Shown here: positions 7,807 to 64,000 of the stretch, in pieces
Position numbering within the stretch: the stretch's first letter is position 1
How the letters are laid out: each line of letters begins with the position of its first letter
NCBI RefSeq assembly: GCF_013122565.1
Contig: NZ_CP053258.1
Direction: 5' to 3' (one strand)
DNA: 64,000 nucleotides
From: Escherichia coli
GTDB lineage: Bacteria; Pseudomonadota; Gammaproteobacteria; Enterobacterales; Enterobacteriaceae
Made by a program: the position numbers and the translations under genes
The notes under the pieces: model-generated
The model's input: only the letters and a program-made list of their open reading frames with translations
Database searches by the model: none
What the model was told of the DNA's origin: nothing

Positions 7807-10503
<2,697 letters not shown>

Positions 10504-25495: not shown

Positions 25496-27004
25496 TTACT
25501 GCTGCGGAATTGCCGGTACAGCCGGAACGTTAAGAGCTGGCATCGCAAACATGCCAACAAAATCTTCTAACGACATTTTCTGCCCGTTTAACGTGATCTG
25601 ACCGTTAGTATATTGCAGGCTGGTGGTGATGGTATTGTCCTGCAAGGTGGTCAGACGGAACATCTGCCCCATTGCTGATGCACCTTCAACTTGCTGTTTC
25701 GCCAGTTTTTTCGCTTGATCTTCCTGATAACCTTCCAGCTTCGCTACCTGAGTCATCAACTCAGTTGCCATATCCACCGGAATGGTCAGTTTCGCATCCA
25801 GAGATTTAACCGAACGATCTACTTCCTGCGCCAGCGTTTGCGGCGCTTCTTTAGTCGTTGCCGGATCTTTCAGGAACAGCGACAGATTCAGTGCACTTTC
25901 ACCCTGACTGTTTTTCCAGCTTAGTGGCGCGATAGTAATCACCGGATCGCCTTTCAACATCAGCGGCAGGGCGCTAAAGAAGGCTTCCGTCACTTTCTCC
26001 TGATAAAGTTCTGGATTGTTGGCAATTTCTGGCTGTGCCAGCAGCGCCTGAGTTTGCGCGTTATATTGCTGGCTAAACTGATGCCAGGCTTCGCCATCAA
26101 TTTGGCCGACTTTTAAAGTCAGCTTGCCGCTGCCCAGATCCTGATTCTGTACCTTCAGGCTGTTTAGCGAGTAATCCAGTTGGCTATTGATCGTTTTACC
26201 GTCATTGACCAGATCCGATTTACCGCTGATCTCCATGCCTTCCAGCAGTGCCAGTTCTTTGCCTTCCACTGAAATGGTCATTTTTTCCAGTGACAGTTTT
26301 TGATTTCCTACGCGCTCACCAAAACTTGCCAGCGTGCTGGAACCGTCGGTTTTCAGATTATTAAAGGTCAACTGTACTTTCTGGTTGTATTCGTTAACCG
26401 CGTCTATCCGACCACTTTGCGCCTCCCCGGAAAGGGAGATAGCTTTGCCGTCTCTGTCTGCATTTAACTGGAACTCGCCGCCGCTAAAGGCGACTTTTTC
26501 ATCCTTTTGCTCGTAATTCAGTGGCTTGAGCGAAATATCGGAACTGGAATCTCCGCTGTAACCAATGCGGGAGTTAATCTCAAAAGGCGTTTCACCTTTT
26601 GCCATATCAAACAGTGGCTTGCTAACTTCATTATTAACCAGCGTGGTTTGAATTGATGCCATCGACGGGATCAGGTTCAGTTTTTTTAGCTGGGCAAGGG
26701 GGAAGGGACCATGATCAACCGATTCGTTGAAGATGACGCTCTGACCGCTTTTAATCCACGGATTTTCTTTCCCGGCAATGGGTTTCACCAACAGTTGCAG
26801 CTGACTGCTGAATACGCCGCGATGATAGTTTTGATAACTCACTTCCAGGTTGGATTCAGGAGCGGTCAGTTTGAGTTGCGCGTTCGCCTGCGCGACCATG
26901 TCTTCGAGATGGGTTTCAATCTTCTTGCCTGTATACCATGCGCCGCCTGTCCAGACTACGCCTAGCGCAACAATGACGCCTACCGCTACCAGCGATTTAT
27001 TCAT
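25496..27004 (-). CDS. ydgA: DUF945-family exported/membrane-anchored protein YdgA
   Basis: 502-aa ORF with N-terminal signal/anchor. Confidence 0.85.
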   Translation of the reverse strand: MNKSLVAVGVIVALGVVWTGGAWYTGKKIETHLEDMVAQANAQLKLTAPESNLEVSYQNYHRGVFSSQLQLLVKPIAGKENPWIKSGQSVIFNESVDHGPFPLAQLKKLNLIPSMASIQTTLVNNEVSKPLFDMAKGETPFEINSRIGYSGDSSSDISLKPLNYEQKDEKVAFSGGEFQLNADRDGKAISLSGEAQSGRIDAVNEYNQKVQLTFNNLKTDGSSTLASFGERVGNQKLSLEKMTISVEGKELALLEGMEISGKSDLVNDGKTINSQLDYSLNSLKVQNQDLGSGKLTLKVGQIDGEAWHQFSQQYNAQTQALLAQPEIANNPELYQEKVTEAFFSALPLMLKGDPVITIAPLSWKNSQGESALNLSLFLKDPATTKEAPQTLAQEVDRSVKSLDAKLTIPVDMATELMTQVAKLEGYQEDQAKKLAKQQVEGASAMGQMFRLTTLQDNTITTSLQYTNGQITLNGQKMSLEDFVGMFAMPALNVPAVPAIPQQ

Positions 27005-56273: not shown

Positions 56274-58700
56274 TTATATTTTTTCGATCTCGACCAGATT
56301 CGTGTGCTGCGGGTTTCCCTTCGCCAGTGGTGAAGGGCGCAGAGTGGTTAGCGTATTCACACAGCCTCCATGGTCGATTTTATCGCCAGACATATTGGCC
56401 TCATGCCAGGCTCCCTGGCCCATAGCGCTAACCCCAGGGAGAATGCGTGGTGTCACTTTGGCTGGTAGCCGAACTTCGCCACGATGGTTAAACACCCGCA
56501 CCATATCGCCGTTGGCAATCCCACGTTTCTGTGCATCTATAGGGTTGATCCACACCTCCTGACGGCAGGCAGCCTTCAGGACATCAATGTTGCCGTAGGT
56601 CGAGTGAGTACGGGATTTGTAATGGAAACCAAACAGTTGCAGTGGGAAGGTACTACGTTCAGGGGAGTCCCAGCCTTCAAAGGTTGAGGCATAAACCGGC
56701 AGTGGGCTTATCACTTCATCTTTTTCCAGTTCCCAGGTACGGGCAATTTCCGCCAGCTTGCTGGAATAAATTTCAATCTTACCGGAAGGCGTTTTAAGTG
56801 GATTTGCCTCGGGGTCGTCACGAAATGCTTTGTAGGCGACAAAATGACCATTGGGATCTTTACGCTTATAGATACCCATTTTTTTCAGTTCGTCGTAAGA
56901 CGGTAACGCCGGATCTTTGGCAAGCATTTTGGCGTACAGATGTTGTAACCATTGTTCCTGCGTGCGACCTTCTGTGAACTTTTGATAGACGTCAGGTCCA
57001 AGACGTTTCGCGACTTCACTCAGGATCCAGTAAATCGGTTTACGTTCGAATTTTTCGCTGGTGACTGGCTGGAGGAAAATGAGATATCCCATGTTACCGG
57101 CGTAGTCGTTAGGAATAATATCTTCCTGCTCAACGGTCATCAGGTCTGGCAGCAGAATGTCGGCATATTTTGCCGATGAGGTCATAAAGTTTTCGATGAC
57201 CACAATCATTTCGCATTTCGATTCGTCTTGCAGAATTTCATGCGTTTTGTTGATGTCAGAATGCTGATTAACGAGGGTATTTCCCGCGTAGTTCCAGATA
57301 AACTTAATGGGCACATCCAGTTTATCTTTGCCCCGGACACCGTCGCGGAGTGCCGTCATTTGCGGGCCATGATCGATAGCATCCGTCCAGCTGAAGCAGG
57401 AGATTGACGTTTTGACCGGATTATCCAGCACCGGTAGGCGTTCTATCGTAATGGTATAGGTCGATTCACGCGCGCCACTATTTCCGCCGCTGATGCCGAC
57501 ATTGCCCGTCAAAATAGGCAACATAGCAATAGCGCGTGCGGTCAGCTCACCGTTTGCCTGGCGTTGCGGCCCCCAGCCCTGGCAGATATAAGCGGGTTTT
57601 GCTGTGCCAATTTCACGAGCCAGCTTGATGATACGGTCCACCGGGATACCGGTAATTTGCGAAGCCCACTGCGGCGTTTTCGCTGTTTTATCATCACCTT
57701 CACCAAGAATATAGGCTTTATAGTGACCATTTTTTGGTGCATCTGCGGGTAAGGTTTTTTCGTCATAACCGATGCAGTATTTATCGAGAAAAGGTTGATT
57801 AACGAGATTTTCGTTAATCAATACCCAGGCAATACCCGCCACCAGCGCGGCATCGGTGCCCGGGCGAATAGGGAGCCATTCGTCTTCACGACCGGCAGCC
57901 GTATCGGTATATCGCGGATCGATAACAATCATTTTTGCGTTCGATTTTTCGCGCGCTTTTTCAAGAAGATAAGTGATGCCACCGCCGCTCATACGTGTTT
58001 CTGCCGGGTTGTTACCAAACATCACGACCAGCTTGCTGTTTTCGATATCCGTGGTGCTGTTGCCATCATTACTGCCGTAGGTGTAGGGCATGGCACAGGA
58101 AATTTGCGCAGTGCTGTAGGAGCCATACTGGTTGAGTGAACCGCCGTAGCAGTTCATCAGACGTTTGACCGCCGAGGCGGATGGCGATGAGCGGGTCATA
58201 TTGCCGCCAACGATCCCCGAAGAGTACTGAATATATACAGCCTCATTGCCATATTGTTCGACGGTTTTTTTCAGGCTACTGGCGATAGTATCCAGGGCTT
58301 CACCCCAGCTAATCCGTTCGAATTTGCCTTCGCCGCGTTTGCCCACGCGTTTCATTGGATAATTCAAGCGATCGGGATGATTAATACGCCGACGGATGGA
58401 GCGACCGCGCAAACAGGCGCGTACTTGATGATTGCCATACTCATCGCTGCCGGTGTTGTCAGTTTCCACCCAGGTCACTTCATTATCTTTAACATGTAGA
58501 CGAAGTGCACAGCGGCTACCACAGTTGACGGAACAGGCACCCCAGACCACTTTTTCGCTGGCCTGTTGTACCGCTGCCGCTGCACTGCGCAGGGTGAACG
58601 GTAAAGAAAAACCGCCTGCAGCCAGCGCCAGAGAACCTATCGCGGTAGATTTAACGAGTGTTCTGCGGCTGATGCCCACCATTTGTTCATTTTTGGACAT
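56274..58700 (-). CDS. ynfE: DmsA-type molybdopterin oxidoreductase catalytic subunit (selenate reductase) with Tat signal
   Basis: 808-aa ORF; twin-arginine motif SRRTLVK; paralogue of ynfF. Confidence 0.92.
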   Translation of the reverse strand: MSKNEQMVGISRRTLVKSTAIGSLALAAGGFSLPFTLRSAAAAVQQASEKVVWGACSVNCGSRCALRLHVKDNEVTWVETDNTGSDEYGNHQVRACLRGRSIRRRINHPDRLNYPMKRVGKRGEGKFERISWGEALDTIASSLKKTVEQYGNEAVYIQYSSGIVGGNMTRSSPSASAVKRLMNCYGGSLNQYGSYSTAQISCAMPYTYGSNDGNSTTDIENSKLVVMFGNNPAETRMSGGGITYLLEKAREKSNAKMIVIDPRYTDTAAGREDEWLPIRPGTDAALVAGIAWVLINENLVNQPFLDKYCIGYDEKTLPADAPKNGHYKAYILGEGDDKTAKTPQWASQITGIPVDRIIKLAREIGTAKPAYICQGWGPQRQANGELTARAIAMLPILTGNVGISGGNSGARESTYTITIERLPVLDNPVKTSISCFSWTDAIDHGPQMTALRDGVRGKDKLDVPIKFIWNYAGNTLVNQHSDINKTHEILQDESKCEMIVVIENFMTSSAKYADILLPDLMTVEQEDIIPNDYAGNMGYLIFLQPVTSEKFERKPIYWILSEVAKRLGPDVYQKFTEGRTQEQWLQHLYAKMLAKDPALPSYDELKKMGIYKRKDPNGHFVAYKAFRDDPEANPLKTPSGKIEIYSSKLAEIARTWELEKDEVISPLPVYASTFEGWDSPERSTFPLQLFGFHYKSRTHSTYGNIDVLKAACRQEVWINPIDAQKRGIANGDMVRVFNHRGEVRLPAKVTPRILPGVSAMGQGAWHEANMSGDKIDHGGCVNTLTTLRPSPLAKGNPQHTNLVEIEKI

Positions 58701-61627: not shown

Positions 61628-62842
61628 ATGAAGATCGTAAAGGCTGAAGTTTTTGTTACCTGTCCGGGGCGTAATTTCGTCACATTAAAAATCACCACTG
61701 AGGACGGTATTACGGGCCTTGGGGATGCCACCCTCAATGGACGTGAGCTTTCCGTGGCCTCTTATTTGCAGGATCACCTTTGTCCGCAGCTTATTGGTCG
61801 CGATGCGCACCGTATCGAAGATATCTGGCAGTTTTTCTATAAAGGTGCTTACTGGCGTCGCGGTCCGGTTACGATGTCGGCCATTTCAGCGGTTGATATG
61901 GCGCTGTGGGATATTAAAGCCAAAGCTGCCAACATGCCGCTTTACCAGTTACTCGGCGGCGCGTCTCGTGAAGGGGTGATGGTTTATTGCCATACCACCG
62001 GTCACAGTATTGATGAAGCTCTGGATGATTATGCCCGTCATCAGGAGCTGGGATTCAAAGCCATCCGCGTGCAGTGCGGAATCCCTGGTATGAAAACCAC
62101 CTACGGCATGTCGAAAGGTAAAGGTCTGGCTTATGAACCCGCAACCAAAGGACAGTGGCCGGAAGAGCAGCTGTGGTCGACGGAGAAATACCTCGATTTC
62201 ATGCCGAAATTGTTTGACGCGGTACGTAACAAGTTTGGTTTTAATGAACATTTGCTGCATGACATGCACCATCGCTTAACGCCTATTGAAGCGGCGCGCT
62301 TTGGTAAAAGCATTGAAGATTATCGCATGTTCTGGATGGAAGACCCGACGCCTGCGGAAAACCAGGAATGCTTCCGTCTCATTCGCCAACATACCGTCAC
62401 ACCCATCGCAGTGGGTGAAGTCTTCAACAGCATCTGGGACTGCAAACAACTGATTGAAGAGCAACTCATCGATTATATCCGCACCACGCTGACCCATGCA
62501 GGCGGAATTACCGGTATGCGCCGGATTGCCGATTTTGCTTCGTTGTATCAGGTACGTACTGGCTCACACGGTCCTTCCGATTTGTCACCAGTCTGCATGG
62601 CTGCGGCGTTGCACTTTGATCTGTGGGTCCCCAATTTCGGTGTCCAGGAATACATGGGTTATTCCGAACAAATGCTCGAAGTCTTCCCGCACAACTGGAC
62701 TTTCGATAACGGCTATATGCATCCGGGAGACAAACCGGGTCTTGGTATCGAATTCGATGAAAAGCTGGCGGCGAAATATCCCTATGAACCTGCTTATCTA
62801 CCAGTCGCACGTCTGGAAGATGGCACGCTGTGGAACTGGTAA
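61628..62842 (+). CDS. rspA: enolase-superfamily mannonate-dehydratase-like starvation-sensing protein
   Basis: 404-aa product from ATG 61628 ([17 protein letters not shown]...). Confidence 0.92.
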
Positions 62843-62853
62843 GGAGTAAGATT

Positions 62854-63873
62854 ATGAAAAGCATATTAATTGAAAAACCGAATCAACTGGCGATTGTCGA
62901 ACGTGAAATACCCACCCCGTCAGCGGGTGAAGTACGAGTAAAAGTGAAACTTGCCGGAATTTGTGGTTCAGATAGCCATATTTACCGTGGGCATAATCCT
63001 TTTGCGAAATATCCGCGCGTCATTGGTCATGAATTCTTTGGCGTCATTGATGCGGTGGGTGAAGGTGTGGAAAGCGCCAGAGTCGGTGAACGTGTTGCTG
63101 TCGATCCGGTGGTCAGCTGTGGTCATTGCTATCCGTGCTCTATAGGTAAACCGAACGTTTGTACGACACTGGCTGTATTAGGTGTGCACGCTGACGGTGG
63201 TTTCAGTGAATATGCCGTGGTTCCGGCAAAAAATGCGTGGAAAATTCCTGAAGCAGTGGCCGATCAATATGCGGTAATGATCGAACCTTTTACCATTGCG
63301 GCTAACGTAACCGGACATGGTCAACCGACTGAAAATGATACCGTTCTGGTTTATGGTGCCGGTCCAATCGGCCTGACGATCGTTCAGGTATTAAAAGGCG
63401 TCTATAACGTTAAAAATGTGATTGTTGCCGATCGCATTGATGAACGACTGGAAAAAGCGAAAGAGAGCGGGGCAGACTGGGCGATTAATAACAGCCAGAC
63501 ACCGCTTGGCGAGATTTTCGCTGCAAAAGGCATCAAGCCGACATTAATTATCGATGCGGCTTGTCATCCTTCTATCCTGAAAGAGGCCGTAACGCTGGCT
63601 TCTCCAGCGGCACGTATTGTATTGATGGGCTTCTCCAGTGAACCGTCTGAAGTGATTCAGCAAGGAATTACCGGAAAAGAACTCTCTATTTTTTCTTCAC
63701 GCTTAAATGCAAATAAATTCCCGGTCGTTATCGACTGGTTAAGTAAAGGGTTAATTAAACCAGAAAAATTAATTACCCATACGTTTGATTTCCAGCATGT
63801 TGCTGATGCCATTAGTTTATTTGAACAGGATCAAAAACATTGCTGCAAAGTCTTACTCACTTTTTCTGAATAA
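62854..63873 (+). CDS. rspB: zinc-dependent alcohol dehydrogenase family protein
   Basis: 339-aa product from ATG 62854 with GHEFFG zinc motif and GAGPIG Rossmann motif. Confidence 0.92.
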   Translation: MKSILIEKPNQLAIVEREIPTPSAGEVRVKVKLAGICGSDSHIYRGHNPFAKYPRVIGHEFFGVIDAVGEGVESARVGERVAVDPVVSCGHCYPCSIGKPNVCTTLAVLGVHADGGFSEYAVVPAKNAWKIPEAVADQYAVMIEPFTIAANVTGHGQPTENDTVLVYGAGPIGLTIVQVLKGVYNVKNVIVADRIDERLEKAKESGADWAINNSQTPLGEIFAAKGIKPTLIIDAACHPSILKEAVTLASPAARIVLMGFSSEPSEVIQQGITGKELSIFSSRLNANKFPVVIDWLSKGLIKPEKLITHTFDFQHVADAISLFEQDQKHCCKVLLTFSE

Positions 63874-63930
63874 TACCAATAACGGCGAGTAAGTAGTACG
63901 CATCTTACCTCTTTTTTAGAGATAACCATT

Positions 63931-64000
63931 ATGACAATAGAAAAACACGAAAGAAGCACTAAGGATTTGGTGAAAGCAGCAGTATCGGGATGGCTGGGCA
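63931..64000 (+). CDS. ydfJ: 5' end of an MFS transporter gene (ydfJ-like); only 23 codons in window
   Basis: ATG 63931 gives MTIEKHERSTKDLVKAAVSGWLG, running off the window; preceded by an RBS-like gagata. Confidence 0.5.
   Translation, partial: MTIEKHERSTKDLVKAAVSGWLG

Follow-up and report, generated by a model that had tools for sequence, protein, structure and literature searches.

In Escherichia coli the gene ydfJ exists both as an intact transporter gene and as one split by a prophage, and DNA that ends inside this gene raises the question of which state it comes from. The stretch analysed here (64,000 nt, hereafter the window) stops 70 nt into an open reading frame downstream of rspB. 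A sequence-only reading had taken this frame for the 5' end of a ydfJ-like gene encoding an MFS transporter, had stated that the gene is interrupted by the prophage Qin in K-12, and had expected either a prophage junction or an intact transporter gene beyond the window, depending on strain, with an uninterrupted frame of about 430 aa in the flank taken to mean that no prophage sits at this junction. The questions are therefore what the frame is, where a prophage junction would lie relative to the last letter of the window, and which of the two states is the probable one in this lineage.

The window end and its relation to K-12

The genes at the window end are in the order ynfA-rspA-rspB-ydfJ', and the features from rspA onward are as follows.

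61628..62842, plus strand: rspA, open reading frame for a ManD-type enolase-superfamily enzyme (D-mannonate dehydratase), which opens the rspAB unit 5' of ydfJ
62854..63873, plus strand: rspB, open reading frame for a 339-aa Zn-dependent oxidoreductase, starting with the ATG at 62854 and ending with the TAA at 63871-63873
63874..63930, plus strand: rspB-ydfJ intergenic spacer, 57 nt, the same sequence in all aligned loci
63931..64000, plus strand: 5' end of ydfJ, 70 nt (23 codons and 1 nt), with its ATG at 63931

The product of rspA matches the NCBIfam models NF043051 (ManD, 744 bits, cutoff 550) and NF011654 (819.9 bits), and the gene is collinear with K-12 rspA (b1581). The product of rspB matches the equivalog model NF007489 (693.3 bits, cutoff 376), and an exact-protein look-up in the public collection placed the identical RspB protein in 37 blocks. 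The last frame is still open at position 64000, and its 70 nt read MTIEKHERSTKDLVKAAVSGWLG, so the window does end 70 bp into a ydfJ-like gene downstream of rspB, as had been described. The 23 residues encoded within the window agree at every position with the N-terminal end of full-length YdfJ proteins of 455 aa. Positions 63874-64000 match the rspB-ynfP/ydfJ' segment of K-12 MG1655 at 100% identity. The same sequence is found in seven homologous loci of other strains, and every locus without an insertion sequence (IS) in alignment A1 agrees with it. Because the last 3 kb of the window are matched in 5,389 of 5,426 complete E. coli genomes (megablast), the frame at 63931 is not due to chance. 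The apparent truncation of ydfJ is an artefact of the window end, and no DNA feature cuts the gene; the 70-nt edge frame should be labeled in annotation as the window-cut 5' end of ydfJ rather than as a small gene or a pseudogene.

Over its full 64 kb, the window is collinear with K-12 from 1,716,944 to 1,652,769 at 98.6–98.9% identity, and no IS element was found in it. On these two grounds, an origin from Shigella was rejected. Two local length differences from K-12 were observed far from the window end. Within rsxC (window 7856-8278, minus strand) there is an in-frame tandem repeat of 96 nt in 4.4 copies with a 90% match, and the matching rsxC stretch of K-12 is about 98 nt longer; given this difference in length, the copy number of the repeat varies between strains. 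Between tqsA and pntB, about 80 nt of K-12 (1674576-1674656) are missing from the window at around 42194-42200, which is probably a polymorphism of a REP-type intergenic element.

The attachment core and its occupancy across E. coli

In the annotation of K-12 MG1655, the cryptic prophage Qin occupies 1632277-1652745 (20.5 kb, inserted after nt 93 of the ORF), and the order is ynfP (b4534, 36 aa, adjoining rspB), intQ, Qin and ydfJ (b1543, 427 aa). The ynfP translation consists of the first 31 residues of YdfJ followed by KSHAC. The Qin interruption in K-12 named in the sequence-only reading is borne out by this split into a 36-aa ynfP and a 427-aa ydfJ, and it agrees with the published account that site-specific integration of Qin took place at the 5' end of ydfJ, removing the promoter and 28 N-terminal codons (PMC6379469). 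Qin is also recorded in ydfJ for strains W, K-12, B, and Crooks (PMC3032704), and in SE11 the gene is the site of a lambda-like prophage, PP_SE11-3 (PMC2608844).

Intact and prophage-bearing loci share their sequence through ...GAATTTATGGATTTC (also given as ...CTGCGCTTGAATTTATGGATTTC) in alignment A1, and they diverge after nt 93 of the ORF, which corresponds to window position 64023 (switch at 64023/64024); from there, intact loci continue into ydfJ with CAGTTATATT, whereas prophage loci continue into phage DNA with AAGAGTCAT. The core recurs as GAATTATGGATTTC at the far end of Qin in K-12, and the two K-12 copies, GAATTTATGGATTTC and GAATTATGGATTTC, differ by one T (L016:6200-6360 and 26650-26900). 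Since the core is repeated at both ends of Qin in K-12, the att core as deduced from these sequences is about TGAATTTATGGATTTC, comprising nt 78-93 of the ORF (codons 26-31, window-equivalent 64008-64023). The window stops 7–8 nt before this core, and occupancy therefore cannot be read from the window alone; all 23 codons in the window belong to the N-terminal piece that is left beside rspB upon Qin-type integration. The core also includes the ATG of Met29 of YdfJ, and because the phage-side copy carries this ATG, the truncated 427-aa ydfJ of K-12 keeps a start codon.

The phage tyrosine integrase recombines at the core, leaving a stub of 36 or 42 aa next to rspB, and the other 427 codons are cut off from the promoter and the first 28 codons by 11–97 kb of prophage. 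The sequence of an occupied site from 64001 on would read ...GGATTTCAAGAGTCAT..., with a minus-strand integrase gene after it. In the prophage loci, the gene directly past the stub encodes an integrase of 426–431 aa (Arm-DNA-bind_2 and Phage_integrase), and an excisionase-like DUF1233 protein, YdfE, YdfD, DicB, and a CI/Cro-type module are also encoded past the stub. In L002-L009, L013, L020, L023, L024, 100181, and KL53, the integrase and excisionase genes lie no more than about 150 nt from the ydfJ stub and are encoded on the other strand.

To count the two states, 600-nt queries across the junction were searched against the 5,426 complete E. coli genomes, requiring at least 80% coverage in one place.

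Intact junction: 2,010 of 5,426 genomes, 37%
Qin-type junction (rspB end, stub, integrase): 2,674 of 5,426 genomes, 49%
Neither junction: about 740 of 5,426 genomes, about 14%

The Qin-type share agrees with the published occupancy of 48% among 638 strains (PMC6379469), and with 2,010 intact and 2,674 Qin-type junctions the outcome does depend on strain, as the sequence-only reading had anticipated. These frequencies make it necessary to consider that a Qin-type lambdoid prophage begins 23 nt past the window end. This arrangement is the commonest state of the site in E. coli, both in our count and in the published one, and the 70 nt of ydfJ in the window are compatible with the intact and the prophage state alike. 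Moreover, the nearest complete genomes differ from each other, A30 being intact and 100181 and KL53 occupied, so that even a clone-mate could differ in occupancy. An inference of the state of the window from its nearest complete genomes was dropped on account of this disagreement.

The genomes with neither junction draw attention to other ways in which ydfJ might be disrupted past the window, for instance by IS insertion, by deletion, by frameshift, or by integration of another kind of element. For example, L010 (GCA_014170675.1, CP059917.1) has an IS66-family insertion after nt 12 of the ydfJ ORF, L011 has a frameshifted ydfJ split into 188 and 254 aa, and L018 retains an 82-aa remnant of ydfJ after a deletion. 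However, the window is uninterrupted through nt 70 of the ORF, which excludes an IS66 insertion of the L010 type, and its 64 kb are, as noted above, collinear with K-12 and free of IS elements. The IS66-family element of L010 (L010:12836-15414) consists of three ORFs, for an HTH_Tnp_1 protein, TnpB_IS66, and a DDE_Tnp_IS66 transposase; as the same strain also bears a Qin-type prophage, its ydfJ stub has been struck twice.

State of the site in this lineage

The exact 798-aa YnfF protein of the window occurs in one contig of the whole collection, Logan SRR11451224_16 (59,583 nt). The fetched part of this contig (L029) is identical to window 43790-64000 over 20,211 of 20,211 nt without gaps, and it reaches 2,186 nt past the window end. 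Given 20 kb of perfect identity, as against a difference of at least 0.7–1.1% elsewhere, we take L029 to represent the genome from which the window comes.

Past the window end, L029 reads CTGCGCTTGAATTTATGGATTTCCAGTTATATTCG, which is an unoccupied site. The core TGAATTTATGGATTTC is followed by CAGTTATATTCG, belonging to ydfJ, and not by the phage sequence AAGAGTCAT that marks the Qin-type switch. An uninterrupted ydfJ of 455 aa is followed by ydfI, and these two are the only genes in the 2,186 nt of L029 beyond the window, in which no integrase or excisionase gene was found. The uninterrupted MFS frame that had been named as the sign of a prophage-free junction is thus present in the identical contig, which was read for 2.2 kb beyond the window, but the length given for it, about 430 aa, does not hold, since full YdfJ has 455 aa and the 427-aa protein is the truncated form of K-12. 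In addition, exactly this YdfJ protein is found in nine contigs, all of which have the order ydfJ-ydfI-ydfZ-rspR-ydfG-dcp and lack phage genes for 10 kb.

These observations bear on the alternatives raised by the population frequencies. A prophage starting 23 nt past the window end would require that L029 comes from a close relative that lacks or has lost it; occupancy does flip among close relatives such as A30 on the one hand and 100181 and KL53 on the other, but the sole public sequence identical to the window has an unoccupied site and an intact 455-aa ydfJ, and nine of nine contigs with this YdfJ have the intact arrangement. We therefore regard such a prophage as improbable. Some other disruption of ydfJ beyond the window, which would place the window among the roughly 14% of genomes with neither junction, is more improbable still; L029 is free of any disruption of the gene. 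Taken together, we are confident that 63931-64000 is the start of ydfJ and that the site is most likely unoccupied, with a 455-aa ydfJ followed by ydfI in this lineage.

Public genomes that resemble the window are generally at some distance from it. The closest of the 5,426 complete RefSeq genomes of E. coli are 98.9% identical over the last 25 kb and 99.3% over the last 3 kb (megablast), and loci retrieved via RspB, YnfA, SpeG, or YdfJ are 0.75–2.4% off the window. Exact-protein matches to RspB, YnfA, and SpeG come only from other lineages, 1–2% away, and both junction states occur among them. A lineage-specific 53-nt pattern in rspB had no match in the GTDB representative genomes. The exact-protein index did not have the YnfE of the window on record, yet L029 is identical there and has an 808-aa gene called; this omission means that the index is incomplete, and its negative results are not evidence of absence. 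A tentative reading, which may hold but to which we give somewhat less than even weight, is that the window stems from a lineage of E. coli that has been sampled very sparsely and in which the unoccupied att site and the intact rspAB-ydfJ-ydfI cluster represent the ancestral state. As a separate observation, divergence among the genes at the window end is highest in ynfE (about 56274-58700), which differs from L001 at 67 nt (2.8%) and 12 aa, compared with about 1.3% elsewhere, and which could be a recombined segment.

The polymorphism of intact and occupied ydfJ is already published, and the locus is an ordinary one that adds nothing new in this respect. That lambdoid prophages integrate in this gene is textbook knowledge for E. 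coli, and the state found here matters very little; if an unseen prophage did begin just past the window end, that would be equally ordinary.

Predicted product, expression, and comparison with known loci

The 455-aa YdfJ encoded in L029 matches TIGR00883 (metabolite/H+ symporter) over model positions 1-400 of 400 with 462.9 bits, above the cutoff of 443.45; the ORF of L029 was scored here since the 23 codons in the window are too short to be scored alone. Precomputed Pfam matches of the same protein are MFS_1 and Sugar_tr. By position as well, the gene corresponds to ydfJ: rspA-rspB directly precede it in the same orientation and ydfI comes after it, and the order rspB-ydfJ-ydfI is likewise found in A30 and in K-12 once Qin is taken out. 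As judged from these sequence matches, the gene at the window edge is ydfJ, a predicted MHS-family (metabolite/H+ symporter) transporter of the MFS superfamily, and the earlier call of an MFS transporter is upheld by the protein of the 100%-identical contig.

Comparison among lineages points to a gene in use. The ydfJ of L029 differs from that of four other lineages by 7 nt and 0 aa, and from that of five further lineages by 13–18 nt and 1–3 aa. This scarcity of amino acid differences relative to nucleotide differences indicates that ydfJ is a working gene under purifying selection.

A scan of 63500-64000 returned no promoter-like and no terminator-like sites, and the RNA fold of the rspB-ydfJ spacer (−6.4 kcal/mol, z = 0.09 relative to shuffled sequences) has no unusual structure. 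A terminator between rspB and ydfJ, suggested by eye from a hairpin (GAGTAAG...CTTACCTC) followed by T6, was rejected, as neither the terminator scan nor the fold supported it. With no such sites in this interval and no unusual structure in the spacer, ydfJ is probably co-transcribed with rspAB by read-through.

The gene lies in the conserved cluster rspA-rspB-ydfJ-ydfI, and the repressor gene rspR is close by. Its neighbors encode a ManD-type dehydratase, a Zn-dependent dehydrogenase, a mannitol-dehydrogenase-family reductase (ydfI), and the GntR-type regulator RspR, and this context suggests that the substrate of YdfJ may be a sugar acid. Such clusters were reportedly tied to L-gulonate/sugar-acid catabolism by Wichelecki et al. 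in 2014. We found no transport data for YdfJ in the searchable literature. The intact allele keeps rspA-rspB-ydfJ-ydfI together, and therefore strains that carry it, rather than K-12, suit tests of transport by YdfJ.

Compared with known systems, the locus departs from the prophage-bearing forms and closely resembles the intact ones. The Qin-type lambdoid prophages (Qin of K-12, W, B, and Crooks, and PP_SE11-3 of SE11) use the att core located 8–23 nt past the window end. Unlike the sites that they occupy, the window contains neither a prophage gene nor an integrase or att junction, and the same holds for the 2.2 kb beyond it in the identical contig. The K-12 locus is similar in sequence on both sides of its insertion: the part of ynfP/ydfJ adjoining rspB is 100% identical to window 63874-64000, and the C-terminal 427 aa of K-12 ydfJ match positions 29-455 of the intact protein at all but 1 residue. 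The difference is that K-12 has the 20.5-kb Qin after nt 93 of the ORF, whereas the lineage of the window is most likely without it. The intact YdfJ of strain A30 (WP_000151243.1), which PGAP names 'MHS family MFS transporter YdfJ', is encoded in the same place, between rspB and ydfI; its N-terminal 23 residues are the same as those in the window, and it differs by 1 aa from the 455-aa protein of the identical contig. Relative to intact ydfJ alleles in general there is no difference of substance, the DNA of this lineage being about 1% off all sampled alleles, mainly at synonymous sites.
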